This document shows, piece after piece, positions 27,777-52,273 of a DNA stretch of 64,000 nucleotides (its first letter is position 1; each line of letters begins with the position of its first letter). The notes beneath the pieces are model-generated. The model had not been told where the DNA came from. It ran no database searches and was given only the letters and a program-made list of their open reading frames with translations. The stretch lies in the IMG/VR virus record IMGVR_UViG_3300042691_030495. The stretch is one strand, 5' to 3'. Made by a program: the position numbers and the translations under genes. Source of the DNA: a virus.

Positions 27777-28465
27777 TGGACGCCCCTATTAGAGCCGGAA
27801 AAGCCCTCCTCTATGCTCGAGTATCTACAGCGCTACAAGTGAGCGATGGAGTGTCGCTAGACGTGCAGGAACGCACAATGGTGAACGCTGCTGAGTTCCA
27901 TGGCTTTGAATCATGGGAGCTGGTGCGTGAAGAGGGTAAGTCTGGTAAGTCGATTACTGGTAGGCCGGCTTTGACAGAGACGTTGGGGCGCTTGAAGCGC
28001 AAAGAAGTAGACGCCCTTATTGTTACAAGAATAGACAGACTTGCTAGGTCGACTACAGACTTCTTGGATATCGTGGATAGAGCCAACAAGGAGGGGTGGA
28101 GGTTGATCATGTTGGACCTAAACCTAGACACCTCGACCTACCAGGGGCGCTTCGTTGTGACGGTGATGTCGGCGCTCGCTGAGATGGAGCGAGGCATTAT
28201 TGCTGCTCGCCAGAAAGACGTGCATAAAGACCGCCGCGAGCGGGGGATTGTTTGGGGTGTGGATATGGGGCCTAAGAACAAGACTCCAGCTGAGGTCAAG
28301 GAGCGCATCTTGTCGGAGCGAAATCGTGGACGCGCCTATGGAAAGATTGCTGATGATCTGAACAGGGACGAGGTGCCTACGCAGAATGGTAGAAAGTGGT
28401 ACGCGTCAACTGTAAAGAATATAGTAGACGCCACTATTGTTGGGGAATCAAAAGATGAAGCCTAG
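27776..28465 (+). CDS. Serine recombinase (resolvase/invertase family)
   Basis: YARVST, SG...GRPAL, RIDRLARS, ALAEMER. Confidence 0.92.
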   Translation: MDAPIRAGKALLYARVSTALQVSDGVSLDVQERTMVNAAEFHGFESWELVREEGKSGKSITGRPALTETLGRLKRKEVDALIVTRIDRLARSTTDFLDIVDRANKEGWRLIMLDLNLDTSTYQGRFVVTVMSALAEMERGIIAARQKDVHKDRRERGIVWGVDMGPKNKTPAEVKERILSERNRGRAYGKIADDLNRDEVPTQNGRKWYASTVKNIVDATIVGESKDEA

Positions 28466-29360
28466 GTCATTTAACAAGGTTGATATTGATGCTGAGCGTG
28501 GTGTGGTCCGTAAGTCATCCACGGACGTAGAAAAGCTTAAAAACGAAATCCTATTTTACGTAGATGCTCCTGATGGAGTAAAGAAGCTTATGCCTAAACT
28601 ATATAGGTATTCTGAGGACTTTTCTTGGTACGAGATGGAGTATCTAGAATGGACTACTATAACTGAGCTAGTCAATAGCAGGGAGCTATCTTCGGAGGAG
28701 TGGGCCTCTATATTCTTTTCAATAAGCGAAGCTTATATGTCATTTAATGAAAACTTAGAGGATACCTCTTTTTCCTACCTTTACGAGATCTTTATAGGTA
28801 AGGCGCTAAAAAGAGCTCGTGGGCTAGACAATAAAGAGCTTAGAAACATATTCTTTAACGGATGTATTGTAAATGGGGTTGCAAGAAGGGGGTTAGCAGA
28901 TTCACTAATATCTCAAATGGGAGTGCTGTTTAGGGTAACTAAAGAAGTTTCTTTGCTGCATGGTGATTTTTGCTTCTCCAACATACTGATTAGCAACGAC
29001 TTAAAAAAGATTAAAGTTTTAGATCCTAGAGGAGGATTTAACGAACCTTCGATATATGGCCCTAAGGCTTATGACATAGCTAAATTGGCTCAGAGTTGCT
29101 ATAGCTGGTACGACAAAATAGTAGAGGGTCACTACAAACTTGTAAGGTCGGACAACGGTTATGAACTATTTACGGTTGGTGAAATCTGGACAATCGATGC
29201 CAGGATTGCTTTTGATCCAATGTTAGAAACATTTGACTTAACTGAAAATGATGCTAAGATTTTAGCTGGGTTAATGCTTGCTGGGACCCCTGCATTGCAC
29301 CTAGATGACCCCGAAAGGGCCATATCACTGGCCCTAAACGCCGTTCTACTGCTTTCCTAG
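28455..29360 (+). CDS. APH/choline-kinase-like phosphotransferase (capsule/sugar-kinase type)
   Basis: LLHGDFCFSNIL, LDPRG, YDIAKL. Confidence 0.75.
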   Translation: MKPRSFNKVDIDAERGVVRKSSTDVEKLKNEILFYVDAPDGVKKLMPKLYRYSEDFSWYEMEYLEWTTITELVNSRELSSEEWASIFFSISEAYMSFNENLEDTSFSYLYEIFIGKALKRARGLDNKELRNIFFNGCIVNGVARRGLADSLISQMGVLFRVTKEVSLLHGDFCFSNILISNDLKKIKVLDPRGGFNEPSIYGPKAYDIAKLAQSCYSWYDKIVEGHYKLVRSDNGYELFTVGEIWTIDARIAFDPMLETFDLTENDAKILAGLMLAGTPALHLDDPERAISLALNAVLLLS

Positions 29361-29381
29361 AATTTCGGGTAGACTGGCCCT

Positions 29382-29780
29382 ATGTCAATCCCAAACAGAG
29401 TAAAAATTGGTGCGCAGATCTTTAAGGTCGAAGAGCGTAGCGTAAAGCAAGACGGCACCCTTAACGATAACTCTTATGGTTACACTTTGGACCAGGGGAA
29501 CTTAATAGTAATAGACGCCTCTATTGCCTTCACTAAAAAACAGCAGACGCTCCTACACGAAGTGATTCATGCTCTAGGGATGGTACATGCTGCGGGAATG
29601 AAGCAACCTAGTGGCAAAGATGAGTATGAAGTCTGGGAACATCATTTTATTGGCATTTGGGAATCTCCTATGTTATTGTTCATCAAAGACAATCCAGAGG
29701 TTATAGAGTGGTTGCAACTAGAAGAGGAGCCTGAAGTTGGGTCGAAGAAAAAGCCAGGAGCCGTCAGGTCCAAGGCCTAA
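29382..29780 (+). CDS. HEXXH zincin-like phage protein
   Basis: IPNRVKIG...QTLLHEVIHA. Confidence 0.7.
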   Translation: MSIPNRVKIGAQIFKVEERSVKQDGTLNDNSYGYTLDQGNLIVIDASIAFTKKQQTLLHEVIHALGMVHAAGMKQPSGKDEYEVWEHHFIGIWESPMLLFIKDNPEVIEWLQLEEEPEVGSKKKPGAVRSKA

Positions 29781-30078
29781 CGATGCTTGGGTCTGTGAAA
29801 CCTCGATCCAAGTCAATGGGAGAAACGTCACTCTTGGCACTGAAGTAAAAATTCGTGGCGTCCGGGGAAGATTTAGGTTTGTAAAGAAAGTCACCACTCC
29901 TACCACCGAGTGGATAGATGTTTGGGGTGGCCCTAAGGGAGCCGAGTCTATGAGAAGTTTTAGGGTGGGGCAGATAAAAACAGTTCACTATAAAAACCAA
30001 ACTGTAGGCAATCTTGCAGTAGAGTACAAAGAGAAGAAAGCTGCCAAGAAGGCAGAGCTAGAGAATGGTGAGGATTAG
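29737..30078 (+). CDS. Hypothetical phage protein
   Basis: Overlaps both neighbours; GTEVKIRG.RGRFRF...WIDVWGG...RSF. Confidence 0.6.
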   Translation: MGRRKSQEPSGPRPNDAWVCETSIQVNGRNVTLGTEVKIRGVRGRFRFVKKVTTPTTEWIDVWGGPKGAESMRSFRVGQIKTVHYKNQTVGNLAVEYKEKKAAKKAELENGED

Positions 30079-30541
30079 ACCAAAAATGAGTTGTTCATGC
30101 AAAACTGTAAACGCCCCTATTGTTGACATCGAAGTCCTAGAAGGCGGATCTATTCCTAAGTATGCAAGGGATGGGGATGCTGGTGCGGACCTGACTTCAA
30201 GTGGGTATGCGCTTATACCTGCTGGCGGTCGTGCACTTGTGAAGACTGGGATAAAGATTGCAATTCCTTATGGGTATGTTGGTCTGGTACACCCTAGAAG
30301 TGGTCTAGCTCTAAAAAGTGGAATCACTGTGCTTAACACTCCTGGGACTATCGACTCTGGTTATAGAGGTGAGGTAGGGGTAATTCTCTACAACACAACG
30401 GATAGCTACTTTGAAGTTCAGGCTGGAGATAGGATTGCTCAGCTTGTTGTGCAAAAGGTCGAAACCGTTGAGTTTAATCCAGTAGACGCCCTTACTGAAA
30501 GCGACAGAGGCGAAGGCGGATTTGGATCTACAGGAGTTTAG
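30065..30541 (+). CDS. dut: Trimeric dUTPase
   Basis: GDAGADL, PRSGLA, GTIDSGYRGE, DRIAQL, RGEGGFGSTG. Confidence 0.96.
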   Translation: MVRIRPKMSCSCKTVNAPIVDIEVLEGGSIPKYARDGDAGADLTSSGYALIPAGGRALVKTGIKIAIPYGYVGLVHPRSGLALKSGITVLNTPGTIDSGYRGEVGVILYNTTDSYFEVQAGDRIAQLVVQKVETVEFNPVDALTESDRGEGGFGSTGV

Positions 30542-31161
30542 AGAAGTTTTTCTATCTCTGAGCAGATTAGATTGTAAGCTTCTTCTGAAGTAAGTGGCGG
30601 ATGATCTTGGTTCTGCATGGGCTCTACGATACCTTCAGTAACGTTTTTGTGGTAGTAGTCCAACAGCGTATAGTTGTGGAATCTCTTAATTAGCTTTCCA
30701 TCTCGGTCTACCAAAAACTTCTCAAAGTTCCCGCCCATCGCTTCGTTGGAGTCTTTTGTAAGCTCCTTATAGAGCTCGTGGGTCTCAGCGTAGTTGTTAC
30801 GCTTCTCTCTCCAAGTCTCGTGGGGATTAGATGTGACTAGCTCGGAAAACTCAAATGTTACGTTGTATTTGTTTACTGCATAGTCTTTGGCGTCTTCTCC
30901 ACAGCTAATGCCATTTTCTGCGTACTCGTTGTAAGTAATCCCAGGGCCGCAAAAGTCGTTAGTTGGCACAGCAACTATCTCAAAGCCTTGATCTTTGTAC
31001 TTTTTATATATCTCTTCTAGGGTCTCTAACTGAGGGGAGTTTCCGCAGTCGGCCGTTACGTTGACAATCATAGATACTTTGCCCTTGAACTTGGATAGAA
31101 AGTTTTCTTCTCCCTCTAGGGACTTAAGTGGTATATCGTAGATGGATTCTATGGTGCTCAT
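30538..31161 (-). CDS. Glutathione peroxidase-family protein
   Basis: GKV..IVNVTADCG..PQ...LE.IY, P.NDF, NFEKFLVDRDG. Confidence 0.85.
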   Translation of the reverse strand: MSTIESIYDIPLKSLEGEENFLSKFKGKVSMIVNVTADCGNSPQLETLEEIYKKYKDQGFEIVAVPTNDFCGPGITYNEYAENGISCGEDAKDYAVNKYNVTFEFSELVTSNPHETWREKRNNYAETHELYKELTKDSNEAMGGNFEKFLVDRDGKLIKRFHNYTLLDYYHKNVTEGIVEPMQNQDHPPLTSEEAYNLICSEIEKLL

Positions 31162-31233
31162 TTATCCTCGGTTTGATCGTAATTACTGGGCTTGTTATAT
31201 CATTTTACCCTAGCCCAAGGTATACTAGTGGTT

Positions 31234-31896
31234 ATGGATAAATTTATGGGACCGATTGTAATAGACGATTTTCTAGACAGTAGCTTGATAGTAGAGCTAG
31301 TAGAGTTCCTAGACCCTATGCTAAAGGACAGCCCTAGGCAGGCAATGCGTGGAGCTTTGGGATACGAGACCTCTGCAATAGCTGCTTCTGTCGGTAGTGG
31401 GACTCCTGCTGTCCCGGGATTCGAGGGCACTGAATCAGAAAAAACCGTTAGAGCTTTAGAAGACGTATACAAAAGAGTCAGAGTTTCCATGGAAGAACAC
31501 TTTGGCGTCGAGATGGATTTAGTAAACTGCAACTACCAAGAGCTAGGAGAGGGTGGAAGTAACCCTCTTCACTCGGATAGTACAAAACTAGATGGCTCTC
31601 CTTGGAGAGATGATGGCATTGAAGAAGAGTTGGAGTTTTCTGCTCTTGTCTATCTAAATAGCGTAGGGGTAGATTTCACTGGTGGAGAGATAGAGTTTCC
31701 TCTACAAAATATATTGATAAAGCCTAAAGCAGGCCAGCTGGTCTACTTTAGAGGCGACATAGACCACATACACGAAGTAAAGACCGTCACTGGTGGCCTA
31801 AGAAAAGTCCTAGTATTCTTCTTTGCGCGAAAAGGCAACATCTCTTCAGTTCAGTTTTTTGCAGAAGATGTAGCTGGTGGAGACGTAATTAACTAG
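31234..31896 (+). CDS. 2OG-Fe(II) oxygenase, P4H-like
   Basis: HSD...YLN...DFTGGEIEF...HEV...R. Confidence 0.87.
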   Translation: MDKFMGPIVIDDFLDSSLIVELVEFLDPMLKDSPRQAMRGALGYETSAIAASVGSGTPAVPGFEGTESEKTVRALEDVYKRVRVSMEEHFGVEMDLVNCNYQELGEGGSNPLHSDSTKLDGSPWRDDGIEEELEFSALVYLNSVGVDFTGGEIEFPLQNILIKPKAGQLVYFRGDIDHIHEVKTVTGGLRKVLVFFFARKGNISSVQFFAEDVAGGDVIN

Positions 31897-32222
31897 TAAT
31901 TAGTTCCATTTATATAGTTGGCTAGATCCTCGTACTCTTTATTGGTTTCCGCGTGCTTTATTACTTTGTAGTACTGAGCTGCAACTTCATCCTGCATTGA
32001 GTTCCAATCAAGGGAGTCAACAAGAATTGGGTGCCAAGCTGTTCCGTCAAACACTGCAGGCTCCTCTTCGCCGTACACATAGACATAGCCCATCTTCTGG
32101 CCTTGCTCTTCGAACGGGCTGTCTAGGATTCCGTCTGGGTCTGGCCATAAGCGAACTCCGCGAAGTAGCCCTGCGCGAGGATTGATCTTGGTAGCGGCTT
32201 GACTTTTTTCTTCAGTTGTCAT
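31893..32222 (-). CDS. Hypothetical protein
   Basis: GGAG SD upstream; 109-aa ORF. Confidence 0.6.
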   Translation of the reverse strand: MTTEEKSQAATKINPRAGLLRGVRLWPDPDGILDSPFEEQGQKMGYVYVYGEEEPAVFDGTAWHPILVDSLDWNSMQDEVAAQYYKVIKHAETNKEYEDLANYINGTNY

Positions 32223-32318: not shown

Positions 32319-33254
32319 GTGAGTTACCTAAACAAAACAATTTTTGTTATGGTCCCTGCTTATAGAGATCCAGTGCTTAGGGAGACTCTTGATTCAATAT
32401 TTCAAAATGCCTTGAACCCTGAAAGAGTGTTTGTTGCTATTGGTGCTCAGTACGATAATGAAATTCCAATGCCAGATCTTACGGGGCTTCCTAGTAAAAA
32501 CCTAAGATTGTTGACTATACACCCTGAAAATAGGCCAGGGGTATACAGGCTTAGAAGCATCCTTAATAAGTTGTATGCTGGCGAAGACTACTATCTATCT
32601 ATAGATTCTCACACCTTTTTGGCGGAAGGCTGGGACGAAGAGTTAATCCGCAGCTTAGAGTCATTCAATGACAAGAAGACAGTACTACAGGCTTACGAGC
32701 CTGGCTCAATTTTGCACAAGAATGGCACCATGAAGTATATTCACTATCAGATGTCTGTCAGCTTAGATAATGAAGTAAATATCCCGAGGCTTGTTATGAA
32801 AGATTTAATATACAAAGACTTATTAGAGACTGAAGAGATGCCTGTTTCAGACTATGTTCAAGCTGGAATGATATTCACTAGAGGAACCTTTGCAGATGAG
32901 ATTAGATGGGGCGAACTCTGGCAAAATGACCAAGAAGAGCCGTTCCTATCTTTTGAAATGTTTATGCTGGGTTGGACCTCGAGGTTGATGGTGACGCAGA
33001 AAGTTATTAATCATGAACCAGATAGGTATTATGAAACGGTCTACAGTAGTGAGCCGGAGAGCCACAATAGGAATTTTCGTGATAGTTGGGGCATCCAGAA
33101 AGATGATTTGTCTGTAGTGTGCCCCAAGATTTTTGCAGCTATGATTAGTAATTCTGGTCCTTTTAAAGTGTTAAAGGCCATTAAATCTCCTCGAGACTGG
33201 TGGCACTCAATTGGTCTTGAAGACGAGTATGAGAAATATAAAGATCTTTTTTAA
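32319..33254 (+). CDS. GT60-like glycosyltransferase (hydroxyproline GlcNAc-transferase/Gnt1 family)
   Basis: TIFV...AYRDP.L..TL..IF.NA.NPERVFV, EDYYLSIDSH..L..GWD..LI, AGMIF..G.F, EE..LS...F..GW. Confidence 0.8.
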   Translation: MSYLNKTIFVMVPAYRDPVLRETLDSIFQNALNPERVFVAIGAQYDNEIPMPDLTGLPSKNLRLLTIHPENRPGVYRLRSILNKLYAGEDYYLSIDSHTFLAEGWDEELIRSLESFNDKKTVLQAYEPGSILHKNGTMKYIHYQMSVSLDNEVNIPRLVMKDLIYKDLLETEEMPVSDYVQAGMIFTRGTFADEIRWGELWQNDQEEPFLSFEMFMLGWTSRLMVTQKVINHEPDRYYETVYSSEPESHNRNFRDSWGIQKDDLSVVCPKIFAAMISNSGPFKVLKAIKSPRDWWHSIGLEDEYEKYKDLF

Positions 33255-33287: not shown

Positions 33288-33361
33288 CGAGACTTAGCTC
33301 AGCTGGTTAGAGCAAACGGCTCATAACCGTTCGGTCGTCGGTTCAAGTCCGACAGTCTCGA
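33288..33361 (+). tRNA. tRNA with CAT anticodon (elongator Met or Ile2)
   Basis: CGAGACT/AGTCTCG acceptor (C1-G72 paired, so not initiator); AACGG-CTCATAA-CCGTT. Confidence 0.9.
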
Positions 33362-33379
33362 CAGAAAGGAAAAGAAAAA

Positions 33380-33889
33380 ATGACAGCACTAAATTTAACT
33401 CCCGAAGCTTTAGCCAGGTTTTGGGCAAAGGTAGATATAAAAGATGAAAAGTCATGCTGGCTTTGGACTAGAGCGGTAAATAGTAAGGGCTATGGTTCTT
33501 TTGCTATAAACGGTAAAGGAGTTTCTGCTCACAAGATATCTTGGGCTTTAGCTAAAAATGATGGAATTTTGTCTGGTCCTAAAGATCACGTTATGCACTC
33601 CTGTGATATTAGATCCTGCGTCAACCCAAACCACTTAAGTCTAGGCAGTGCTCGTGATAATGCTAGAGATGCAATAAGCAAAGGCCGAAATGTAGTGAGA
33701 ATTCCTAGTAAGGATCCGTACTGCAAAAAAGGCCACCCTAGAACTCCTGAGAACACCCACCCCAAGAAGCACACCTGTCTTGTTTGCGAACGAGACTCTA
33801 ACAGAGAATCAAAAAGAAGAGAGCGCGAGAGAGATAGACCGGCTTACAACAAGAAGCACAGAGAGTACTATCAGAGGACTAAGAAGTAG
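33380..33889 (+). CDS. HNH homing endonuclease
   Basis: RFWAKV...CWLW...GYG...AHK...VMHSCD...CVNPNHL..G...DN, then C..GH. Confidence 0.9.
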   Translation: MTALNLTPEALARFWAKVDIKDEKSCWLWTRAVNSKGYGSFAINGKGVSAHKISWALAKNDGILSGPKDHVMHSCDIRSCVNPNHLSLGSARDNARDAISKGRNVVRIPSKDPYCKKGHPRTPENTHPKKHTCLVCERDSNRESKRRERERDRPAYNKKHREYYQRTKK

Positions 33890-34214: not shown

Positions 34215-35540
34215 ATGCTAAATTACCAGTTGACTAGTTCCCGCTCTTGGCGAACCATTAAGGGTGCTGCTGCCACCCTAAGGACGTATCAGGTGCAAGA
34301 TGGAAGCATTCCTGATGTTTCTAAACATGATGCCTGTCTAATCGCGGTAAAAGAGCTGGCTAACGAGCTACGTAATATCTCTAGAGAGCTTACGCACGAC
34401 CGGGAGTATCTTCTAGCCTGCGCTTCTGACTTTGAAGACTGGGCCGACTCTGGCTTTGAGACCCCTGACTTTTATGAGTCTTTGTCTAAGTTTAAGCCAG
34501 AACAAAACAGAGCCAACAATGTTTTGCACATAGTGGTGTTTCCCACTTATACACAGAACGGCTCTAATAATCGATATGTAGAGGCTGTGGCGTTTGAGGT
34601 TATTTGGCCAGACTTTATTGCTCGGGTAGAAAAAAGTTATACAAACCCTGCATTTATTCCTATTAGGTTTTTAAGCTTTAGCTCAGGGTATTTAACAAAC
34701 TCGGCCGTTCTGTTCCCCGAGTCGGTTGCAACTAAGTCTGCCCCTAAGTTTACTTGGGGCGGAATTTTCGCTGACAGGGAGGCCGCTAGATTAAGAAGAG
34801 TGGCACTATCCGCGAGTGAGATAACAAACCTTGATCTTCCTCTAGAGGCTAAGAGCTTACTAACAAACAGGGAGTTAGCAGAGCATACTTTTGTTTTGTG
34901 GGACTTGATTCATGACCGCGCTCATATGCGAGGCAATCTGCCCTTTGATCCTTTTATGATTAAGCAGCGCATGCCTTTCTTTTTGTATGCGCTCGAGGAG
35001 CTCCGCTGTGATCTAACAGCATTTAGAGAGTGTGTTGCGATTGTCAATGATGTGGATGCAGATCCGGAAGCTAGAAAGCATGCTCGGTTAGTTCAATATG
35101 CTGTCTTGTTTGACCGCATCTTTAGGTTTCCACTGACTAATGGCAGGGAGCGAAACTATGACTCCGTGGCTGGTCAACTGCTTTTTGCATACTTACACCA
35201 GAACAAAGTTATTCACTGGGTGGACACTAAGCTGACCATAGACTGGGAGAGACTTGCTGACTCGGTTATACGCCTTTCTGATGATATAAACGAGCTTTAC
35301 TTTAACTCGATTGATCGACCTAGAACCGTGCACTGGCTGGCAGCATATGATTTGGTATCTAAATGGCTGCCGCCGCATCCTGCGTCTAAGTGGGCCACTA
35401 AGGACTTACCCCTTACTGGAACGCCTGGTGATCTTACTGACCAAGTTATGGAAGACGAGTTTCCGCTCTCTATGTTCTATGAAGCACTATCTAAAAAGTT
35501 GTCCCCTGTGGTGCAGTCGGCAGTGGGGATTATTATTTAA
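34215..35540 (+). CDS. DUF6421 family protein (actinobacterial, zincin-like)
   Basis: FPTYTQNGS, NSAVLFPE, IFADREAAR, WDLIHDRAHMRGNLPFDPFMIKQRMP, LEELRCDL. Confidence 0.8.
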   Translation: MLNYQLTSSRSWRTIKGAAATLRTYQVQDGSIPDVSKHDACLIAVKELANELRNISRELTHDREYLLACASDFEDWADSGFETPDFYESLSKFKPEQNRANNVLHIVVFPTYTQNGSNNRYVEAVAFEVIWPDFIARVEKSYTNPAFIPIRFLSFSSGYLTNSAVLFPESVATKSAPKFTWGGIFADREAARLRRVALSASEITNLDLPLEAKSLLTNRELAEHTFVLWDLIHDRAHMRGNLPFDPFMIKQRMPFFLYALEELRCDLTAFRECVAIVNDVDADPEARKHARLVQYAVLFDRIFRFPLTNGRERNYDSVAGQLLFAYLHQNKVIHWVDTKLTIDWERLADSVIRLSDDINELYFNSIDRPRTVHWLAAYDLVSKWLPPHPASKWATKDLPLTGTPGDLTDQVMEDEFPLSMFYEALSKKLSPVVQSAVGIII

Positions 35541-36055: not shown

Positions 36056-36640
36056 TTAAACGATGTCATCTTCTTTTTTAAAGACAAATACGATTGCACT
36101 TCTTGGGGTATTTGGAAATACTTCATGAGACGTACCAGATGGTACAAAGATTACATCCCCTGGATTTAGTTCATAGTCAGTGTATTCTTTTGAGTCTCCG
36201 ACGTAGATTCTCCATGTGACGGATCCTACGCATTGTGTGTAGACATTATCAGTATCGTCTTCGTGTCTCTCGACTTTCTTTTCTGAGCTACTTAAGCTAA
36301 TAATTGCAAGGGACCCGCTTGGTTCTTTATTAAAAGTAGAGACAAGATCTGACTTTATTTCTTCAAGCCCTGGGAAAAAGTCTTCTTGTGGTCTATCTAT
36401 AAGGATTGTCATATAGCCCCAGAAAGCAACTAGACCTTTTCTAAATTGACTATTATCGTCGCCTTCTTCCATCTCCTCTTGTCTTGATTTAGGCATTGGT
36501 TGCTGCGAGCCAAAGTCAATAAAGTTGATAAAATAGTCCCATTTGTCTGGGAAATTAGAGTAGTGTTTTGGGAAAACTGTGACAGTTCTATTTCTTATAG
36601 ACTCTTTTAAAAGATTTTTGTTATGCTTTTCGCTGAACAT
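36056..36640 (-). CDS. JmjC/cupin-domain oxygenase
   Basis: HEDDTDNVY.QC.G...W...LNPGDVIFVPSG..HEV....R. Confidence 0.75.
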   Translation of the reverse strand: MFSEKHNKNLLKESIRNRTVTVFPKHYSNFPDKWDYFINFIDFGSQQPMPKSRQEEMEEGDDNSQFRKGLVAFWGYMTILIDRPQEDFFPGLEEIKSDLVSTFNKEPSGSLAIISLSSSEKKVERHEDDTDNVYTQCVGSVTWRIYVGDSKEYTDYELNPGDVIFVPSGTSHEVFPNTPRSAIVFVFKKEDDIV

Positions 36641-36697
36641 ATGGTAATTATATATCATAAGGTCCCTAAGTGTGGGGCTGTGTTATGATATGGGAAT

Positions 36698-36899: not shown

Positions 36900-37067
36900 A
36901 TGTCTGAACGTGAAAATATAAACGCCACTACTGTTGCAGACGAAGCAGCAGAGAAGAAAGTCCTATTTGGATGGTGTATGGATGGAAATGATGAGGAGTG
37001 TATAGTGGAGTTTCCTAGGCACAGGTGCTCGTGTGAGTGTCACCAGGGAGTGCAACATGAGGGCTAA
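36900..37067 (+). CDS. Small Cys/His-rich protein
   Basis: FGWCMDG..EEC...CSCECH; AGGAG SD. Confidence 0.55.
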   Translation: MSERENINATTVADEAAEKKVLFGWCMDGNDEECIVEFPRHRCSCECHQGVQHEG

Positions 37068-38043
37068 ACATGATGTAGAAGCTCATGCTGGTACTTGGCA
37101 TAGCGAGACAAAGCTCTTAAGAAGAAATGGCCACAGTGCAAATCGATTTAGAGTGGAAGACTTTAATACCAGTAAAGTGGGCTCCAACTCTGTTAAGTTT
37201 TTGGTTTCTAACAAAAGAAAAATTGTTTTTGACAATACTGATTCGTATGGCCACATACTAATGTTTTGGGTCGATATGGCCATAAAAGAAATGTCTTTAA
37301 CTAAAGAAAAGCTCATTTTTGTTTTTGCCCAAAGCGCTGACCATAGGGAACGAATTTTAGAAGGATCTGAAAGTCTCACAAAGTACTTAGTCAAGAGGTT
37401 CACTGATCTAGGTCATGAAGTCGAGTTTATAGATGATGGTGGGGTTGTCATAAATAACTTTGTCTTATACAAAATGTGGCATCACATTGCCCCGGATAAC
37501 GGTTCTAGGGTTGGTGCTTTCTTGTCTAGCGGTCTTGACTACTCTAAACCTCCTAGTAAAAAAATCTATTTAAGTAGGGGTAAGACTACAACTTATATTG
37601 GTAACAAACATATGATGATCCCTCTGTCTGAGACGACAACATCGATTGGCATGAGTAAGTATAGAGACGAAAACAAATATAAATTCACTGACAGAATAGA
37701 TGATGAAGAGCAAGTAGAAGCTTACTTTAAAAGTCTTGGATTTGAAATTGTATACCCAGAGGACATAGAGTCTTTTGCTGATCAGCTGCAGCTAATAGCG
37801 TCAGCTAAACTTTTAGCCTCTGTTACTAGCTCTTCATTAATTGCCTCTGTAGTTATGGCACCAAATACTTGCATAGTAGAGCTTTCTACCCCGTTGGAGG
37901 ATAGCAGGATCCACTCCCACTACAAAGTCTTGTCCGAAGTAAATAGAAAAAACTATCTTTCAATTTCTAATTCTAGAGTTGCTTCCGAAGTAATTAACTC
38001 TATAGAAACAAATTTAGCTGTTAAAAGCTTTCTATTGAGTTAA
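37057..38043 (+). CDS. GT61 (DUF563) glycosyltransferase
   Basis: YGH, KKIYLSRG, RI.DEEQVE.YF..LGFEIVYPE...F.DQ......AK. Confidence 0.8.
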   Translation: MRAKHDVEAHAGTWHSETKLLRRNGHSANRFRVEDFNTSKVGSNSVKFLVSNKRKIVFDNTDSYGHILMFWVDMAIKEMSLTKEKLIFVFAQSADHRERILEGSESLTKYLVKRFTDLGHEVEFIDDGGVVINNFVLYKMWHHIAPDNGSRVGAFLSSGLDYSKPPSKKIYLSRGKTTTYIGNKHMMIPLSETTTSIGMSKYRDENKYKFTDRIDDEEQVEAYFKSLGFEIVYPEDIESFADQLQLIASAKLLASVTSSSLIASVVMAPNTCIVELSTPLEDSRIHSHYKVLSEVNRKNYLSISNSRVASEVINSIETNLAVKSFLLS

Positions 38044-38594
38044 GAAAGAACGTCGTAGAAGAAAACTAGAAGAACTCTACGTGTTCCTTTTGTAATCTCT
38101 GCAACTCCGTGCGAAACATAATAGCCAGGGAAGACAACCATGTCTCCAGCTTTTGCTTTTACAGAAGTGTTCTGATCTGGGAACACAAGTTCCCCGCCTT
38201 CATAGTCATCGTTTAGAATAAGACTGCAAACGTGAGACCGCTTCATTCCATCAAATATGCCATCGTTGTTTGCGTCTTCATCCCTGTGTGCAGGTAGAAC
38301 TGCCCCCTCAAACATGGTGACACCAAACATCCGATTAAACGTTAGTGTCCCCAGCATGTCATATTTATCTAAAAAGTAGTCTTTTACAATATTCAAAACT
38401 TTAAGTAAGATTTTGTTTGGATCCATAGATATAGGATAGTTTTCTGGAACCTCTACTGAAAAACTTTCTATAAGTCCAGACCCCTCAAATAAAGGCTTCG
38501 GGTCGTAGCCAGAATTTTTTATTACCATCTCGTTAAGCTGGCGTAGCTCGTCTGCAGAGATGTTCCCCTCTAGCACTTCGTAGGTGGGTTCCAT
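38040..38594 (-). CDS. 2OG-Fe(II) oxygenase, P4H-like
   Basis: HRD...LNDDYEGGELVF...HGV...GTR. Confidence 0.87.
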   Translation of the reverse strand: MEPTYEVLEGNISADELRQLNEMVIKNSGYDPKPLFEGSGLIESFSVEVPENYPISMDPNKILLKVLNIVKDYFLDKYDMLGTLTFNRMFGVTMFEGAVLPAHRDEDANNDGIFDGMKRSHVCSLILNDDYEGGELVFPDQNTSVKAKAGDMVVFPGYYVSHGVAEITKGTRRVLLVFFYDVLS

Positions 38595-38663
38595 ATTTAA
38601 GTCTCCTAGTTTCACGTAGTATTAGACTATATTACCGGAACGCAAGCTGAGGAGATTTTCCCT

Positions 38664-39395
38664 ATGACAAACGTAGTTATTCCCATGGCCGGGGGTGGCA
38701 GTCGGTTTTCCGATGCTGGCTACGAATTGCCTAAACCTTTGATTGATGTAACCGGGCTTCCTATGGTTCAGAAGGCAGTCTGGAGCATGGGCATCGGCGC
38801 TCGCTATGTCTATGTAGTGCAGGCCGAACACAATAAAAAGTACAACCTTACTGAGCTCCTCCCAGCGATGACTCCGTCTTTAGAAGTTATTGTGCTTGAA
38901 GTAGATGAGATTACAGAGGGGGCGGCAGCTACTGTACTAGTTGCAAAAGACTACATAGACAACGATGACTTGTTAGTAATCTGTAACGCAGATCAAATTG
39001 TAGAGTGGGTGCCAAATGATTTCCTCAAAGATGCTGGGGAGAATAGAAACTTAGATGGAAGTATTGCTACTTTTACAGCCGAGGGTGACCAGTGGTCTTA
39101 TGCTAAAACAGACGAGAGTGGTCATGTAGTCGAGGTGGCTGAAAAGAATCCAATTAGTGACCAGGCCACTGTTGGGATTTATTATTGGAGATATGGCTCA
39201 GATTTTGTCAAGTACGCAGAGCAAATGATTAAAAAGGACATTAGAGTCAACGGTGAGTTTTATGTGACTCCGGTATATAACGAGGCAATTCTTGATGGAA
39301 AATCTGTAGGTGTCTACCCTGTGGACAAGATGATACCTCTAGGGACTCCTGAGGACTTAAAGTTGTACTTGGATTCACTGACAGATAGTCTATAA
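38664..39395 (+). CDS. Sugar-phosphate nucleotidyltransferase-like protein (GT2/BcbE-like)
   Basis: VIPMAGGGSRF..AGY..PKPLI, TEGAA.TV, AEKNPIS..ATVGIYY, NGEFYV.PVYN, LGTPEDL. Confidence 0.85.
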   Translation: MTNVVIPMAGGGSRFSDAGYELPKPLIDVTGLPMVQKAVWSMGIGARYVYVVQAEHNKKYNLTELLPAMTPSLEVIVLEVDEITEGAAATVLVAKDYIDNDDLLVICNADQIVEWVPNDFLKDAGENRNLDGSIATFTAEGDQWSYAKTDESGHVVEVAEKNPISDQATVGIYYWRYGSDFVKYAEQMIKKDIRVNGEFYVTPVYNEAILDGKSVGVYPVDKMIPLGTPEDLKLYLDSLTDSL

Positions 39396-39403: not shown

Positions 39404-40048
39404 ATGAAAGACGCATCTTTAGCTTTAGACGACTTCTCGAATGCTGGATTAACCGCTAGTGAGATATACCCTGGCATATTCGTAGTAAAAGATTTTCTGA
39501 CTGATCATGAGATCGAAACTTTAACCAATCAGTTCTCGAGCATGAGCGAGGATGATTGGAGTGTTCAGTACACTCAAAGTCTTTACGAGTTTATTAAGAA
39601 TCAATATGGTGTAGACACTATTGAAGAGGCCCAGGAGCTAGGTCATCCTGTTAAAATAGATTCGAATTGGGTTGATAAAAACGCCCTTATTAAAGATGAA
39701 ACTGTCTGCAACAGTATTAATACTAGGCTTGGTAAAATCTTTGAAAACTTAAAAGATCTAGAGCTACAGGGCGCTGGATCTATTCAAAGGCAGTATGAGG
39801 GTATCGACCTTGGGTATCACGTAGACAGCTTGTCTAATCCTCTTGTGGCCTACGCTGCTGTCATGTACGTTAATGGAGACTTCAATGGCGGGGAGTTGCA
39901 CTTTCCTACTATTGATGTGCTGTTTAAACCAGAAGCTGGTAACTTAATAGTCTTCCCTTCGGCTGACGAATACCTACATGGAGTTACTCCAGTAGAAGCT
40001 GGACCTGTTAGGTATGCGCTTCCAGCTTTTGTAAACAAAAAAGTGTAG
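39404..40048 (+). CDS. 2OG-Fe(II) oxygenase, P4H-like
   Basis: HVD...Y.NGDFNGGELHF...HGV...GPVRY. Confidence 0.87.
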   Translation: MKDASLALDDFSNAGLTASEIYPGIFVVKDFLTDHEIETLTNQFSSMSEDDWSVQYTQSLYEFIKNQYGVDTIEEAQELGHPVKIDSNWVDKNALIKDETVCNSINTRLGKIFENLKDLELQGAGSIQRQYEGIDLGYHVDSLSNPLVAYAAVMYVNGDFNGGELHFPTIDVLFKPEAGNLIVFPSADEYLHGVTPVEAGPVRYALPAFVNKKV

Positions 40049-40057: not shown

Positions 40058-40987
40058 ATGAGTATTGGGGTTAATGAGCACCCAACCTATGGGTTTGCCG
40101 ACAGTCACCTAGGGGAAAATATTAAGTATATCCACATGACCCGGCAGTCGATAGTAGTTTCTGATTATGGTGGGCAAGATGTAAGTCAAAGCTATATATC
40201 TAAAAAAAGAAAAGTATTTCTTCCGGGAGATGTTACGTATGGTCATTTAATTTCGGAAGTACTGGGTTGCGCCATATATGAAATTGACACTTCGCCTGAA
40301 AAGATTCATTTTATATTTAGCGCTGGTCCAGAAAGCATTCCCGCACTAAGAAATAACACGGGGACCCTTCTTGAATTCTTCTCTAGAAAACTGAAAAGCT
40401 TGGGACATGATATTACCTTTACTCCTCAAGTTGAGCAGGTAAATACCGGTGCTGTTGCAAACAACTTTGTGGTTCACTGCAAGAGCATTGCTAGTTCTCC
40501 GTATACTTTAAAAAGAGTTAGAGATGTATTTTTAAGTGAAATAGAGCAGAAAACTCCTTCTGAAAAAATATACCTGAGTAGGGGTAAGACGCTCTTAAGT
40601 AGCACGTTCGGAGATCGCATCTCTCAAGAAGAAGTTTTAGAGGACTACATGCGCACTCTTGGTTTTACTGTTATATACCCTGAAGACCTTGAAACTTATG
40701 ATCAGCAGTTGGAAATTATAACGTCTGCCAAAGTCCTTGCTTCTGTAACCAGCTCATCTTTGCTGGCCTCTATTTTTATGCATCCTGGATCTACTGTCGT
40801 GGAGTTTGCTGTTGAACTATTTCATGGGGACCCAGCGGTAACTCCTGGTATGGTTCAAACATTGTATTATGAGATCTCAAAAGCTTTTGATTTAAACCAT
40901 GTCTCAATAAGTAGCGATGGAAGCTCGTCTAATTTACTAGAGATTATTGAGTCAAATTCAGGGCTAAAATCACTTCTATCGGGTTGA
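40058..40987 (+). CDS. GT61 (DUF563) glycosyltransferase
   Basis: YGHL, EKIYLSRG, RI..EEVLE.YM..LGF.VIYPE, ASVTSSSL; paralog of 37057-38043. Confidence 0.8.
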   Translation: MSIGVNEHPTYGFADSHLGENIKYIHMTRQSIVVSDYGGQDVSQSYISKKRKVFLPGDVTYGHLISEVLGCAIYEIDTSPEKIHFIFSAGPESIPALRNNTGTLLEFFSRKLKSLGHDITFTPQVEQVNTGAVANNFVVHCKSIASSPYTLKRVRDVFLSEIEQKTPSEKIYLSRGKTLLSSTFGDRISQEEVLEDYMRTLGFTVIYPEDLETYDQQLEIITSAKVLASVTSSSLLASIFMHPGSTVVEFAVELFHGDPAVTPGMVQTLYYEISKAFDLNHVSISSDGSSSNLLEIIESNSGLKSLLSG

Positions 40988-41014: not shown

Positions 41015-41719
41015 ATGAGTCCTGTATTTAATGTAGACGCCTTTACTGCTGCTGGCTATGAAGTAGAAGAGCTTGCATCCGAAGTTTGGCTAGTGCGAAA
41101 TCTTGTAAATGACGAAGATCTAAAGCCTGTGTTTGACTACATTGAAAGTCTTTCTGAAGAAGACTGGTTGGGTCATTACATGGACCACCTGCGCGATAGG
41201 GCGGAGCGAGAATATGGCACTCGGGATATTGAAACTTTAAACAAAGAAGGCAAACTCGCCATCACTTTTGATTGGGCAGATAAAACTGTTAGAGTCGAGA
41301 ATCTCCCGATACTAGGCAAAGTTAATGACGCTATTACAAAGATTATCTCCTATGACCCAAACTTGTACTTTAATGGCCTAGGCACTATTCAACGTCAATA
41401 CGAAGGGTCAGATCTTAAAGTTCACGTAGATAACCATGTTGATCCGTATGTTGCTTACGCTGCAGTTATCTACTTGAATGATGATTACGTTCACGGGGAA
41501 GTCATATTCCCTGAGCAGGGGCTAGAAGTTAAGCCTGAAGCTGGTTCAATGCTGTTTTTCTCATCGGGTGAGACACACCCTCATGGAGTGAACCCTCCTG
41601 GACCCGGTCCCTTTCGCTACGTGTTTCCTTGCTTTATAAAACAAACAGAGCTACCTGAAGGTTTTGTCCACAGTCCTAGCGATATACATATGAAATATTC
41701 AACTAAGAGGAAGTATTAA
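41015..41719 (+). CDS. 2OG-Fe(II) oxygenase, P4H-like
   Basis: HVD...YLNDDYVHGEV.F...HGV...GPFRY; paralog of 39404-40048. Confidence 0.87.
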   Translation: MSPVFNVDAFTAAGYEVEELASEVWLVRNLVNDEDLKPVFDYIESLSEEDWLGHYMDHLRDRAEREYGTRDIETLNKEGKLAITFDWADKTVRVENLPILGKVNDAITKIISYDPNLYFNGLGTIQRQYEGSDLKVHVDNHVDPYVAYAAVIYLNDDYVHGEVIFPEQGLEVKPEAGSMLFFSSGETHPHGVNPPGPGPFRYVFPCFIKQTELPEGFVHSPSDIHMKYSTKRKY

Positions 41720-48240: not shown

Positions 48241-48252
48241 CTTAGGGAACGA

Positions 48253-48867: not shown

Positions 48868-50844
48868 TTATGCTCCGCTTCTTATGTTTACGGTGGTTGC
48901 TATACCGGCCATTGAAACGGCGGATAGGGCTATCTGGGTGACTACAACGGCTGTAACAACCACCTTTTCTGACTGCTCTCGGACCTGAGGGCTCATGTCA
49001 GCTCCAGCGTTTCCTAGGAAGTTAAGGGTTTCTAGGGCCCCTCCAAGGACGTCACCAAGGAGTGGGATGGCTGCTAGGGACTCGTCTAGGACAATGTCAT
49101 CCTGCTGGGCTGCCACGAATAGGGCCTCAAGAGCCTGCTCGTACTCCTCAGAGCCTGGTTCTGCTGTTTCGAAGGTCTCGAGGGCTGCCTCAATAAGAGC
49201 CTCTGCCTGGGCCTCTGAGAGCTCTGTAGGGACTATTTCAGCTAGGTCTATATCCATAAGGACTTCAGGGGTAATCTCCTCTGGCAAATCCTCTACAGAA
49301 GTGATAGGCTCCTCTTCAGAAGGAGTTGGTTCAGGTGAAGGTTCAGGTGAAGGCTCAGGTTCGACAGGTTCTGGAGAGGGCTCTACAGGTTCTGTGGTTG
49401 GCTCTTCTGGTTGCTCTGGTTCCTCTGGCTGTGGTGTGGTCGGTTCTTCTGGCTCTGGCTCCAGCGATGGTTCTGGTTCTGGGACTACTGGTGTGGTCGG
49501 CGGTACGGTTGGTTCAACGGTCGGTTCTGGGGATGGAGTCGGAGTCGGCTCCACTGGAATCGGCTCATAAGTAACCAGAAGGATTAGCACCTTCACGGTT
49601 CCGCCTGCTGGATCATTCTGGAAAGTTTCGTTCGATACTTCTACTGTTGCTGAAGTCTCTCCAGCTAGTAGCTCAAACAAAATAGAAGAGACGTCTTGTC
49701 CTCTGGTCGAGTTGTTTGGATCTCCGTAGTATCCTGTGGCACTGGCAATTCTCTGACCTTCAGGGGCGATTATCTCTATAGACTGGCCTTCGTTTGTAAC
49801 TGTTGCACCATTTGGAACTGTAGGTGGAGGCGGTGGAGGGGACGCTACTAATGTCGAAGCAGTGTCCGAGTATGGAGAGTAGACAGCTTCTGTGTCGTTA
49901 TCAGAACGTATTCTGAATTGGTAAGTCTGATCTAATCCACCTGTTGTTTGGAAAGAGTCTCTAGGTATGATGATGCTGTTTGTAGTAGACGCTACTCCCC
50001 AGCCGGTGACAAAGTTATCTGTTGACCAACTGACTGCGTAGCGCTCTACTGAAGTGCTTGTAGGGGTTGGAGCATCCCAGGTAAGCTGAACGGTTCCATC
50101 CTGTAGTTGAGTAGCGGTTACGTTTGTTGGAGCGTTAAGAGACGGAGCTGGTGGCTCTGGGGTAAAAGGGTTCTCTGTTGGTGGCTCTGGAGTAAGCTCT
50201 GGAGTCTCTTCAGTCTCTTCAATTCCGTAGGTCTCAAAGTCAACGATTGTGCCATCGTTTAGACGCACTCCGGTTCTAGGGTTGTACTGTGGGTACTCTG
50301 GACCAGAGAGGGTGTAAGCCATAGCAACTGTGCCATCTGAAAGAATGGCAGCAGTAATCACAATATGAGTTGGCTCTGTTGCATTTTGTAGCCAGATTGG
50401 TCTAGCTGAAATGTCTACCTGGAATCCACCATCTGATGAACGAATGATTAAATGTTCGTCAGATCTCCACTGCGGGTATACAACCCAGTCGAAGGAGTAG
50501 AGGGAGATAGAAGGAGTAGAGGGGTAAGTCCAGTAGGTTCCATCTGGAGCGCCGAAGACGATAACTGAGTTGGTTGTAGCGTAGACGCTGTTATAGGCTA
50601 CTCCGTCAAAAGTTACGTCAACGGATAGTGGAATCTGATAAGAGGTGTCATCTCCACCGCAAGTGTTAAGCTCTACAACTACTGGTTCAGTTGAAGCATT
50701 TTGTTGGGCAGCAGCCACTGCAGCTTCTTGTCCTGGGTAGACGCAAGTATTAGCGTTGGCTAAGTCTGCTGCAAGGAATGCTGGGGCAAACGCGAGTAAA
50801 AAGGCTAGAAGGATTCTGCTTCTAGTTAGTTTAAATTTAGGCAT
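48868..50844 (-). CDS. Exported Fn3-domain protein with Pro/Glu/Thr-rich stalk and C-terminal hydrophobic segment
   Basis: Signal peptide; LNAPTNV...LTWDAP...YQFRIRSDND; (PEP/PT)n stalk; GADMSPQVRE..EKVVV. Confidence 0.75.
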   Translation of the reverse strand: MPKFKLTRSRILLAFLLAFAPAFLAADLANANTCVYPGQEAAVAAAQQNASTEPVVVELNTCGGDDTSYQIPLSVDVTFDGVAYNSVYATTNSVIVFGAPDGTYWTYPSTPSISLYSFDWVVYPQWRSDEHLIIRSSDGGFQVDISARPIWLQNATEPTHIVITAAILSDGTVAMAYTLSGPEYPQYNPRTGVRLNDGTIVDFETYGIEETEETPELTPEPPTENPFTPEPPAPSLNAPTNVTATQLQDGTVQLTWDAPTPTSTSVERYAVSWSTDNFVTGWGVASTTNSIIIPRDSFQTTGGLDQTYQFRIRSDNDTEAVYSPYSDTASTLVASPPPPPPTVPNGATVTNEGQSIEIIAPEGQRIASATGYYGDPNNSTRGQDVSSILFELLAGETSATVEVSNETFQNDPAGGTVKVLILLVTYEPIPVEPTPTPSPEPTVEPTVPPTTPVVPEPEPSLEPEPEEPTTPQPEEPEQPEEPTTEPVEPSPEPVEPEPSPEPSPEPTPSEEEPITSVEDLPEEITPEVLMDIDLAEIVPTELSEAQAEALIEAALETFETAEPGSEEYEQALEALFVAAQQDDIVLDESLAAIPLLGDVLGGALETLNFLGNAGADMSPQVREQSEKVVVTAVVVTQIALSAVSMAGIATTVNIRSGA

Positions 50845-50847
50845 ACT

Positions 50848-51132
50848 CTACTTCTTGGCCTTAGCCTTAGTGGTGGAATTGCCGTCCTGATCGACGCCCT
50901 TAAGGGACATAGCAGGGGCAAAGGCAGCGTTGATTTCTGCACGGGTTAATTTGCCATCTTCTAGGAAGGCAACGGATAGACGCTCGATAACCTTGGCAAC
51001 TGCAAGGATTCCGCCCATAGCCATAGCCAGCCATAGGTCTACGCCCATGACAGCTCCAGCGCCAATGACGCCTAGGGCAGATGCGATAAAGGTTGCCACT
51101 ATTCGGGCAAGAACATTAAGGGTTGTTTTCAA
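50848..51132 (-). CDS. Small membrane protein (holin-like?), paralog of 24903-25256
   Basis: RIVATF.ASALGVIGAG, GVDLW, DGKLT..EIN.AF. Confidence 0.65.
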   Translation of the reverse strand: MKTTLNVLARIVATFIASALGVIGAGAVMGVDLWLAMAMGGILAVAKVIERLSVAFLEDGKLTRAEINAAFAPAMSLKGVDQDGNSTTKAKAKK

Positions 51133-51214
51133 TCTGGGGCCTTTAAATTAGGCCTCTCCCCAGAGAACTACTGCTTATATTTTATCAGACTTCTATTTGT
51201 AGTAGTATTTTTTT

Positions 51215-52273
51215 ATGGAAGAATCCACTAGAAAATTACGTATTGATTTAGAGAATACATACGAGCCAGAAGAGTGCTACATAACTACGCACCAAATTTT
51301 TGAAGAGTTTAGTCTCGCTCCGTCTTTAAAAGATCTTTCATTATCTCTACATAACCCTGATCCCGTAAATATGGGCAGCACTGAATTAGATTTTGTAGAT
51401 ACAAATGAAATGATTTCAGATGAGATTAAAGTTTTAATTTATGTCCAAGACACTATCTATCACTTTTTTATAGACTCTCTAACTATGATCCTTAAGATAC
51501 ATAAGGAGCATTCAAATATTAAGTTTGTTTTATACCTACAAAGAGCTAGAGGCACTAAGGGTATAGATAATTTCTACGAGCTACTATTTTTAATTCTAGA
51601 CGGGCAAGGTGTAAACTATACAACCGTATCCACCGTACCGGGGAAAGACTATGCACCAGTCTATAAATTTAATAACTATGTGCGAATAGACAGACAAGTC
51701 AATATCCACCACTTGATGTCTTTCTTAGACGTGGAGTATATGGCAGACATTGCTATTAAATACTCTAGAAAGTATATGAATGCTACCGAGTCGGTTGAAC
51801 CGTTTAGGAAGCTATACATATCTAGAGGCAACGCTCCATCTGATTTAGGACCTATAGAAGAGGACTATCCAGACTACAGGGACGACCTGAGAATGAACGA
51901 CGCCCTAAAGTTAGAGGAATTCTTTGTCAGTCAAGGGTACGAAGCTTTCAGCCCTGAGAAGAAGTTTGGCTCTATTATGGAGCAGATTGTGTATATGAGT
52001 GAGGTAAAGACCCTAGCTTCCATTACAAGCTCTGGCCTAGCTAACATGATATTTATGAGGCCTAACCAGACAATCATTGAGGTTCAGGCTGAGCTGGTCC
52101 AGGTTATGAGGTTTGAGAAGGATAGCTATGTCTACCCTAAACAGCAGATACATAACTACTATTCGACCTTATCCTTTATGAGGCAGCATACCCATATAAG
52201 TATCCCTAGCCGTAGGGATCCGGATAAGGTAATTAAGACCCTAACTAGCGGTCAACTTTCCTATTTAATTTAG
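51215..52273 (+). CDS. GT61 (DUF563) glycosyltransferase
   Basis: YHFFIDSL, RKLYISRG, LEEFF...GYE...PE, EQI.YM, SSGLANMIFM.P...IIEV. Confidence 0.82.
   Translation: MEESTRKLRIDLENTYEPEECYITTHQIFEEFSLAPSLKDLSLSLHNPDPVNMGSTELDFVDTNEMISDEIKVLIYVQDTIYHFFIDSLTMILKIHKEHSNIKFVLYLQRARGTKGIDNFYELLFLILDGQGVNYTTVSTVPGKDYAPVYKFNNYVRIDRQVNIHHLMSFLDVEYMADIAIKYSRKYMNATESVEPFRKLYISRGNAPSDLGPIEEDYPDYRDDLRMNDALKLEEFFVSQGYEAFSPEKKFGSIMEQIVYMSEVKTLASITSSGLANMIFMRPNQTIIEVQAELVQVMRFEKDSYVYPKQQIHNYYSTLSFMRQHTHISIPSRRDPDKVIKTLTSGQLSYLI

Follow-up and report, generated by a model that had tools for sequence, protein, structure and literature searches.

We characterized a 64 kb window (the whole stretch of DNA analyzed) from an uncultured lake phage contig of approximately 141 kb in total (IMG/VR virus record IMGVR_UViG_3300042691_030495), which encodes Fe(II)/2-oxoglutarate (2OG) oxygenases of the prolyl 4-hydroxylase (P4H) type, glycosyltransferases (GTs) of the GT60 and GT61 families, and a kinase-like protein and a nucleotidyltransferase (NTase) for a proposed sugar supply. 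In other phages and in metagenomic proteins, each pair of these modules is physically linked by fusion or overlap. These gene arrangements give good support to a system that couples hydroxylation to glycosylation and supplies its own sugar, and the oxygenases, the GT60/GT61 enzymes, and the kinase and NTase probably work together to hydroxylate and glycosylate proteins. Because GT60-oxygenase, GT61-oxygenase/cupin, and kinase-NTase links are all encountered in relatives, the best reading appears to be that the hydroxylases and protein-type GTs share substrates and that the phage possesses a route to a nucleotide diphosphate (NDP)-sugar. We lean modestly toward viewing the region as a cytoplasmic protein-tailoring system of three linked modules, namely hydroxylases, glycosyltransferases, and sugar activation. 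The first-pass annotation of this DNA had already treated these genes as one functional set, a grouping that is borne out by the fusions and overlaps in other lineages.

In the proposed mechanism, the prolyl-hydroxylase-type enzymes and a JmjC-like cupin would hydroxylate repeat-rich phage proteins. A GT60-type GT-A enzyme (ppGalNAc-T-like fold, DxH...H metal site) and three GT61 GT-B enzymes (POMGNT2-like fold) would attach O-linked sugars and would probably extend them on the same proteins. The donor would be made by an APH-fold kinase that converts a free sugar to a sugar-1-phosphate and by the NTase that converts this product to an NDP-sugar. We infer the placement of the sugar on the newly made hydroxyl (hydroxyproline, Hyp, or hydroxylysine, Hyl), the identity of that sugar, and a GT60-then-GT61 order; the product may be N-acetylglucosamine (GlcNAc) on Hyp, extended by GT61 enzymes, with a virion protein as the target.

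Within the window, the hydroxylase, GT, and sugar-activation genes sit in a mixed region at 20-52 kb that also holds ribonucleotide reductase, dUTPase, ThyX, three tRNAs, an HNH endonuclease, a serine recombinase, and lysins. Between 37 and 41.7 kb, the genes run GT61 (paralog 1, 37033..38043, +), oxygenase (38040..38615, -), NTase (38664..39395, +), oxygenase (39404..40048, +), GT61 (paralog 2, 40058..40987, +), and oxygenase (41015..41719, +), exactly the order first described, with only the 38040-38615 oxygenase on the minus strand. The NTase is the first gene of a compact same-strand operon, NTase-oxygenase-GT61-oxygenase-ThyX (gaps of 8, 9, 27, and 0 nt), in which the second GT61 has oxygenases on both sides and ThyX (41720-42418) directly follows the 41015-41719 oxygenase. 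Oxygenases occupied three of the eight positions flanking GTs in the window, compared to approximately 1.1 expected. Within the window alone, this adjacency is only suggestive of a non-random arrangement, and linkage was therefore sought in other lineages.

We found GT60 and oxygenase genes physically coupled in related loci, in line with the P4H-GT60 route that the first-pass annotation had proposed. In L001, L002, and L005 (GT60 68% identical), the stop of an oxygenase gene overlaps the GT60 start, and this oxygenase is of the type encoded at 27168 in the window. In L003 and L006-L009 (GT60 52-57% identical), an oxygenase gene directly precedes a second GT60 paralog, the two being 3 nt apart or slightly overlapping. 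A GT60 profile search over 1.84 billion representatives returned 3609 relatives, and the best 150 were inspected. Among the 61 long proteins in this set, at least 13 join one to four PF11397 (GT60-type) domains to PF13640 (P4H-type oxygenase) domains, and several of the fusions carry an AhpC-TSA (peroxiredoxin) domain in between. The simple form, one GT60 and one oxygenase domain, is represented by P0151, while P0054 combines GT60 domains with a protein O-fucosyltransferase and a PLOD collagen-GT domain, and P0129 fuses GT60 to a sugar epimerase/dehydratase. It was also noted that metagenomic proteins of 1100-2460 aa (P0041-P0048, P0058, and P0059) contain two to four tandem PF11397 domains; in most of them, one or two oxygenase domains of the P4H type are present as well, a peroxiredoxin domain occurs in some, and one multi-GT60 protein carries the JGI name 'Tpa1-like proline 4-hydroxylase/peroxiredoxin'.

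The GT61 genes were linked to hydroxylases as well. An oxygenase -> GT61 -> cupin triad was encountered in L014, L016, and L018-L020, with a cupin homologous to the window gene at 36056..36658 (-), which is the divergent neighbor of the first GT61. In the four contigs L016-L019, the GT61 and the cupin form one protein of 542-548 aa; the fusion in L017 was recorded without an oxygenase call. Oxygenases account for only 5 of the 69 genes in the triad loci. In L019 and L017, the triad adjoins tail-fiber genes homologous to those at 7524, 12639, 17535, and 16757 in the window, and in L014 the genes after it are an oxygenase and a homolog of DUF6065, a gene that in the window belongs to the cassette around a protein with a Phe-Pro tail. 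At the syntenic position of the third GT61 (51215..52273, +), L013 holds four GT61 genes and L060 an overlapping GT61-kinase-NTase operon. By tblastn, neither the first GT61 nor the GT61-cupin fusion found a match, and no cultured relative was recovered. Because GT61 has hydroxylase partners of its own (oxygenase and cupin), these arrangements point to hydroxylases and GTs working in parallel pairs and not in a single linear chain.

The window cupin is a candidate cupin/JmjC-like metal oxygenase. It matched JmjC_2 in Pfam at 29 bits over only 30 residues, its H132-x-D134...H178 motif was invariant, and its profile matches in the PDB were generic cupins (E >= 9e-4).

The sugar-supply genes showed a comparable linkage. 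Of 30 distant viral loci, about 20 have the kinase-like gene fused to or overlapping an NTP_transferase gene, and in the fused relatives the APH match is itself sub-threshold (22.3 bits compared to 23.2). Together with the L060 operon, these loci agree with the earlier claim that the phage encodes its own activated-sugar supply. In L001, an NTase-HAD gene, GT61, oxygenase, and GT60 all lie within 4.3 kb, and in L007 the GT60 genes are accompanied by UDP-glucose-dehydrogenase-like and epimerase/dehydratase genes. In the window, the predicted sugar-1-phosphate NTase at 38664..39395 was assigned to PF00483, NTP_transferase (41 bits against a cutoff of 21). Its N-terminal GxGxR...K motif is present (MAGGGSRF...LPKPL) and its best PDB match was the NDP-sugar pyrophosphorylase 4evw (E = 2.4e-22), in agreement with the annotation first given to it.

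The kinase-like protein at 28455..29360 (+), a putative APH-fold sugar (anomeric) kinase, was the weaker call. Its hidden Markov model matches are weak: APH_6_hur in Pfam fell below threshold (E = 0.0015; 18 bits compared to 27) and the NCBIfam family MTRK was matched at E = 2.9e-6. The first-pass description as kinase-like finds support in its Atlas neighbors, which bear APH, and in an H-x-D-x4-N motif (HGDFCFSN) at residue 175, with the Pfam score the part that falls short. In L107 (positions 4569-6011) and in L108, L110, L112, and L113, an NTP_transferase is fused to DHBP synthase (RibB), with the kinase-like gene directly after; on this order, some kinase/NTase pairs may act on a substrate other than a hexose.

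An alternative is that there is no pathway, and that the oxygenases and GTs are unrelated cargo piling up in a hyperplastic region. The window genes are indeed spread over 24 kb on both strands, mixed with nucleotide-metabolism, lysis, tRNA, and homing-endonuclease genes. The fusions and overlaps nevertheless turn up again in several lineages, for GT60 with oxygenase, for GT61 with cupin and oxygenase, and for kinase with NTase, and because of such fusions and overlapping pairs the oxygenase-GT association is not attributed to chance. This alternative is disfavored and we regard it as very improbable.

Several observations nonetheless weigh against a coupled system as we read it. The kinase lies 9 kb from the NTase in the window, and the window GT60 gene is not co-transcribed with an oxygenase, as a minus-strand gene at 31893-32222 intervenes. 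The locus counts overstate independence, because many of the related loci derive from few lineages. The existence of proteins with three to four tandem GT60 domains implies that some PF11397 domains may extend glycans and that not every one initiates. Linkage also denotes a shared pathway or substrate, and is not proof that the sugar sits on the hydroxylated residue. Finally, one candidate substrate, a Pro/Glu/Thr-linker protein (48868..50844, -), was rejected as a dedicated GT61 substrate: among 80 homologous loci, of which approximately 72 had the full open reading frame (ORF), a GT61 gene lay within 8 kb in only 1 of the ~72. The intervening gene at 31893-32222 encodes 109 aa behind a good Shine-Dalgarno sequence, between the 31192 oxygenase and the GT60, and its product had no family match.

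The first-pass annotation had placed a GT60-like enzyme at 32319, and this call stands: the gene at 32319..33254 (+) matched PF11397, 'Glycosyltransferase (GlcNAc)', at E = 1.1e-24 in Pfam (88 bits against a cutoff of 21). PF11397 was present in all 31 GT60-like homologs, and the DxH metal motif D96-S97-H98 and a downstream H232 were invariant across 16 GT60-like sequences. The AlphaFold model (pLDDT 88.6) gave ppGalNAc-T (GT27) as its top PDB fold matches, with TarS, the first other enzyme listed, at rank 44; its best viral matches were uncultured-phage proteins labelled 'Glycosyltransferase, GlcNAc'. An N-terminal transmembrane (TM) segment was not evident in the sequences of this protein or of the three GT61 proteins. 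The GT60-like enzyme is predicted to be cytoplasmic because it lacks such a segment. By phmmer against PDB sequences, the GT60-like, kinase-like, and GT61 proteins had no significant match. A tblastn search with the GT60-like protein recovered only two Xanthomonas jumbo phages, at 25% identity and without an oxygenase neighbor, and no GT60 relatives were found in a scan of genome contigs.

The three GT61 paralogs matched PF04577 at 51.2, 51.5, and 41.5 bits against a Pfam cutoff of 27, as expected from their first description; the gene originally placed at 37057, an internal start, begins at 37033. The first matched at E = 1.9e-13 and the second over its full length, and pairwise identity among the three was 26-32%. 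For the second paralog, the AlphaFold model (pLDDT 80) had POMGNT2 as its top 16 PDB fold matches (E = 4e-9 to 5e-8), with TM scores of only ~0.5, followed by heptosyltransferases at E >= 1.5e-4. Characterized eukaryotic GT61 enzymes are secretory or membrane-anchored, and no N-terminal hydrophobic segment was found in any of the window paralogs, which would accordingly be cytoplasmic enzymes as judged from their sequences.

The whole window contains 11 PF13640 genes, and all 11 oxygenases retain the HxD...H triad followed by a basic residue (2OG-binding). The one nearest the GT60 gene, with an intact HxD...H, lies at 31192..31896 (+). The first-pass annotation had counted six more 2OG oxygenases among the genes at 28455-52273; this count was not sustained, as the span holds four PF13640 genes (31192, 38040, 39404, and 41015) and one cupin. 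Two additional oxygenases lie just upstream of that span at 26506..27108 (-) and 27168..27776 (+). A profile of 14 oxygenases searched against the PDB first recovered P3H1 (prolyl 3-hydroxylase 1), the Bacillus anthracis P4H, and the PBCV-1 P4H, with the collagen enzyme LH3 and Mimivirus L230 (6fxk, 6ax6) lower and Tet-like enzymes approximately 7 orders of magnitude weaker. By best match, the window oxygenases would be of the prolyl-hydroxylase type.

This ranking bears on the proposal that the target is not a protein. Under such a scheme, the enzymes would act on DNA bases (TET/JBP-like hydroxylation and then glycosylation), a host envelope polymer, a small peptide, or a secondary metabolite. 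Three oxygenases do have Tet_JBP matches, all sub-threshold, and dUTPase, ThyX, ribonucleotide reductase, and an NMAD1/DUF1599 gene occur in the same region. In addition, a distant homolog in XacN1 lies near replication genes and a carbamoyltransferase, and metabolite synthesis was proposed by Iyer et al. for the oxygenase array of Syn9 (PMC2938197). However, PF13640 scores above threshold and Tet_JBP below, the PDB ranking favors prolyl hydroxylases, and the folds of both GT types best match protein glycosyltransferases. The fusion partners include a protein O-fucosyltransferase and a PLOD collagen-GT domain, the triad adjoins fiber genes, and the window showed neither a cytosine methylase nor a hydroxymethylase. 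A non-protein target is considered improbable, if still possible in the form of metabolite synthesis. As a separate observation, the small DUF1599 gene ('nucleotide modification associated domain 1') is located at 45350-45637 (+) in the window and at 6673-6960 in L007; it overlaps the ThyX start in L003 and L006-L009, and lies 3 kb from ThyX in the window.

Several proteins in the window could serve as substrates. The first 20 kb carry a minus-strand fiber operon, among whose genes are those for two (GAT/GPT)n proteins of collagen-like type and for an fn3 protein with a Phe-Pro repeat tail, along with a five-oxygenase cassette. The larger collagen-like fiber protein (2..2011, -; PF01391, E = 9e-59), which is cut by the window end, comprises more than 670 aa of nearly all GAT/GPT triplets, with a local GC content of 54% compared to ~44% elsewhere. 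The second, a (GPT/GAT)n fiber protein, is encoded at 16757..17512 (-), and the fn3 protein ending in Phe-Pro repeats at 7524..8363 (-), beside the five oxygenases. The linker protein at 48868..50844 has a signal peptide, fn3, a long Pro/Glu/Thr linker, and a C-terminal TM segment; its homolog in L013 carries (TP/EP)n and is adjoined by the four GT61 genes. On the locus counts above, it is a candidate target and not a general GT61 partner. We infer that the likeliest targets are the collagen-like (GxT)n fibers, the Phe-Pro-tail protein, or the Pro/Thr/Glu-linker protein. A link between the triad and the Phe-Pro-tail protein by way of L019 was dropped, as the L019 homolog lacks the Phe-Pro tail. 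The linker protein and a 94-aa membrane protein (48868-51132, -, in the window; L021-L100) occur as a conserved pair in over 50 viral contigs, and a nuclease and lysins follow where the neighbors were read. The pair may have a lysis or surface role.

These candidate substrates contain as much Thr as Pro, and sugars on Thr are therefore just as likely as sugars on Hyp. The GTs may O-glycosylate Thr/Ser of the same repeat proteins while the oxygenases modify prolines separately, so that the substrate is common and the residue is not. The nearest folds belong to Ser/Thr-directed ppGalNAc-T and to an O-Man extender, and the candidates are very Thr-rich, with (GAT/GPT)n fibers and (TP)n linkers. 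In Bacillus, BclA carries Thr/Ser O-glycosylation on a (GPT)n collagen-like region. Virion Ser/Thr glycosylation is documented in mycobacteriophages, according to the citation of Freeman et al. 2023 in PMC11256854. Taken alone, this arrangement leaves the single-polypeptide fusions of GT and hydroxylase unexplained, although channelling of a shared substrate could account for them. We consider it a possible, if doubtful, account.

A chain resembling the Skp1 pathway was weighed on the same evidence: a P4H-type oxygenase would make Hyp, the GT60-like enzyme would add alpha-GlcNAc, and GT61 enzymes would extend the glycan on virion proteins. This scheme gains from the overlaps and fusions of GT60 with P4H-type oxygenases, from the lack of a TM segment, which would make the GT60-like enzyme cytoplasmic as Gnt1 is, and from POMGNT2, the sole solved GT61, which extends an O-linked sugar on a peptide. 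It also draws on PF11397, which we take to be the family of the Skp1 Hyp-GlcNAc transferase. However, GT60 also includes Ser/Thr O-GlcNAc transferases, and the donor and acceptor are unreadable from sequence. The known Skp1 extenders are not GT61 enzymes, and the separate hydroxylase partners of GT61 suggest parallel pairs. The full Skp1-like chain is therefore rated as possible rather than probable. A broader form of the reading, in which aquatic phages would possess a complete cytoplasmic hydroxy-amino-acid O-glycosylation system with P4H-GT60 and P4H/JmjC-GT61 modules, a kinase-NTase salvage feed, and Hyp- or Hyl-linked glycans on virion fibers, is put forward tentatively.

Additional genes in the region were noted. 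A Cys-type glutathione peroxidase/peroxiredoxin-like protein (30538..31161, -; PF00255, E = 1.4e-16) adjoins the 31192 oxygenase near the GT60 gene and is a possible accessory. Since the metagenomic GT60-oxygenase fusions carry an AhpC-TSA domain, this peroxidase may protect or serve the oxygenases; phmmer did not match it directly to the AhpC domain of those fusions, and the parallel holds at clan level only. A full-length DUF6421 protein (34215-35540, +; E = 7e-201), of a mainly actinobacterial family, matches PolE proteins of solved structure, 9j2e among them, at E of about 1e-9 and represents a further host-type oxidase in the region. PolE is reported to be an Fe- and pterin-dependent amino-acid desaturase (PMC12614342). 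A serine recombinase with Resolvase and Recombinase domains (27776-28465, +) is positioned between oxygenase and kinase genes, and its end extends into the longest ORF for the kinase-like gene. A tRNA-Met is followed immediately by an HNH/His-Me homing-endonuclease gene (33288-33889), and in a megablast of the 30-45 kb segment against cultured phages this tRNA-Met gave the sole match (Enterococcus phages).

Genes for 2OG-Fe(II) oxygenases and for glycosyltransferases rank with the most frequent 'auxiliary' genes of aquatic phages that lack an explanation, and papers list them without function. The literature found on GT60 in phages and on oxygenases with GTs in cyanophages consisted of gene lists, and no paper was found that links phage oxygenases to GT60/GT61; one detailed analysis of phage oxygenase arrays proposed metabolite synthesis (PMC2938197). 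What this analysis adds is the GT61-cupin fusion and triad, the fusions of kinase with NTase, and the proteins that combine several GT60 domains with peroxiredoxin and P4H domains. These fusions and operons yield a concrete hypothesis, that repeat-rich phage proteins undergo coupled hydroxylation and glycosylation from a sugar donor made by the phage. If this holds, Hyp/Hyl glycosylation, so far a trait of eukaryotes and giant viruses, would extend to bacteriophages, as the first hydroxy-amino-acid-linked glycosylation in a virus of prokaryotes. The many orphan genes of aquatic phages annotated '2OG-Fe(II) oxygenase' would gain a role, GT61 would prove to include cytoplasmic enzymes and a new bifunctional GT61-cupin architecture, and the finding would bear on phage-fiber protease resistance or host recognition.

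Comparison with known systems places the predicted pathway among several partial parallels. For sugar supply, the anomeric kinase NahK with GlmU or a UDP-sugar pyrophosphorylase (salvage) and LicA/LicC (choline activation) are known kinase-NTase pairings. The phage relatives resemble them in coupling a putative APH-fold small-molecule kinase to an NTP_transferase, here by fusion or overlap; solved NahK and LicC had no significant sequence match to the window kinase and NTase. The tandem dioxygenase array of the Synechococcus phage Syn9 (Iyer et al. 2010, PMC2938197) is likewise a hyperplastic region with many classical 2OG oxygenases; it also holds one JmjC-type enzyme, for which the window cupin would be the candidate counterpart. 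That analysis proposed secondary-metabolite synthesis and left glycosyltransferases unmentioned, whereas here GTs and sugar activation are linked to the oxygenases.

The mycobacteriophage GTs that act in virion glycosylation are not known to belong to GT60 or GT61. The actinobacteriophages Che8 and Rita are similar in that phage-encoded GTs O-glycosylate virion proteins (Freeman et al. 2023, as cited in PMC11256854). Their system was demonstrated experimentally and is not known to involve hydroxylases, while the window system is known from sequence alone. Among eukaryotic viruses, PBCV-1 encodes a P4H (5c5t) that the phage oxygenase profile matched at E = 1e-11, and it has Pro-rich repeat proteins and virus-encoded glycosylation, much as the phage has Pro-rich repeats such as PEP/TP and GTs of its own. 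It differs in its host and in lacking a GT60/GT61 link; its capsid glycans are N-linked, and to our knowledge none is known on Hyp.

The Skp1 prolyl-hydroxylation/glycosylation pathway of Dictyostelium and Toxoplasma comprises, in outline, the PhyA P4H, the GT60 enzyme Gnt1, and further GTs (PMC3515798, PMC9485057). The phage genes resemble it in the genetic coupling of a predicted cytoplasmic P4H-type oxygenase to a soluble GT-A enzyme of the PF11397/GT60 type that carries a DxH motif. They differ in the number of oxygenase paralogs (approximately 11 compared to one), in the probable targets, which would be repeat-rich structural proteins, and in being carried by a bacteriophage. The Skp1 extenders belong to GT2/GT74/GT77 or GT32/GT8, not GT61, and a P4H-Gnt1 fusion has been reported in Pythium. 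Neither the Skp1 substrate nor the known extending GTs (GT2/GT74, GT77 or GT32, GT8) were encountered among the scanned window ORFs, where GT61 occurs instead.

A parallel in logic is given by LH3 (PLOD3) and Mimivirus L230, in which a single polypeptide with collagen-like repeats as its substrate unites hydroxylase and GT. The phage genes differ from LH3 in using GT61/GT60 enzymes rather than LH3-type GT-A domains, in a GT61-fused hydroxylase that is a small cupin and not a PF13640/LH domain, and in the separate genes of the window. Both LH3 and L230 were nevertheless detected by the phage oxygenase profile, P0054 carries a PLOD GT domain next to its GT60 domains, and the GT61-cupin fusions of the relatives repeat the joining of hydroxylase and glycosyltransferase in a single protein.

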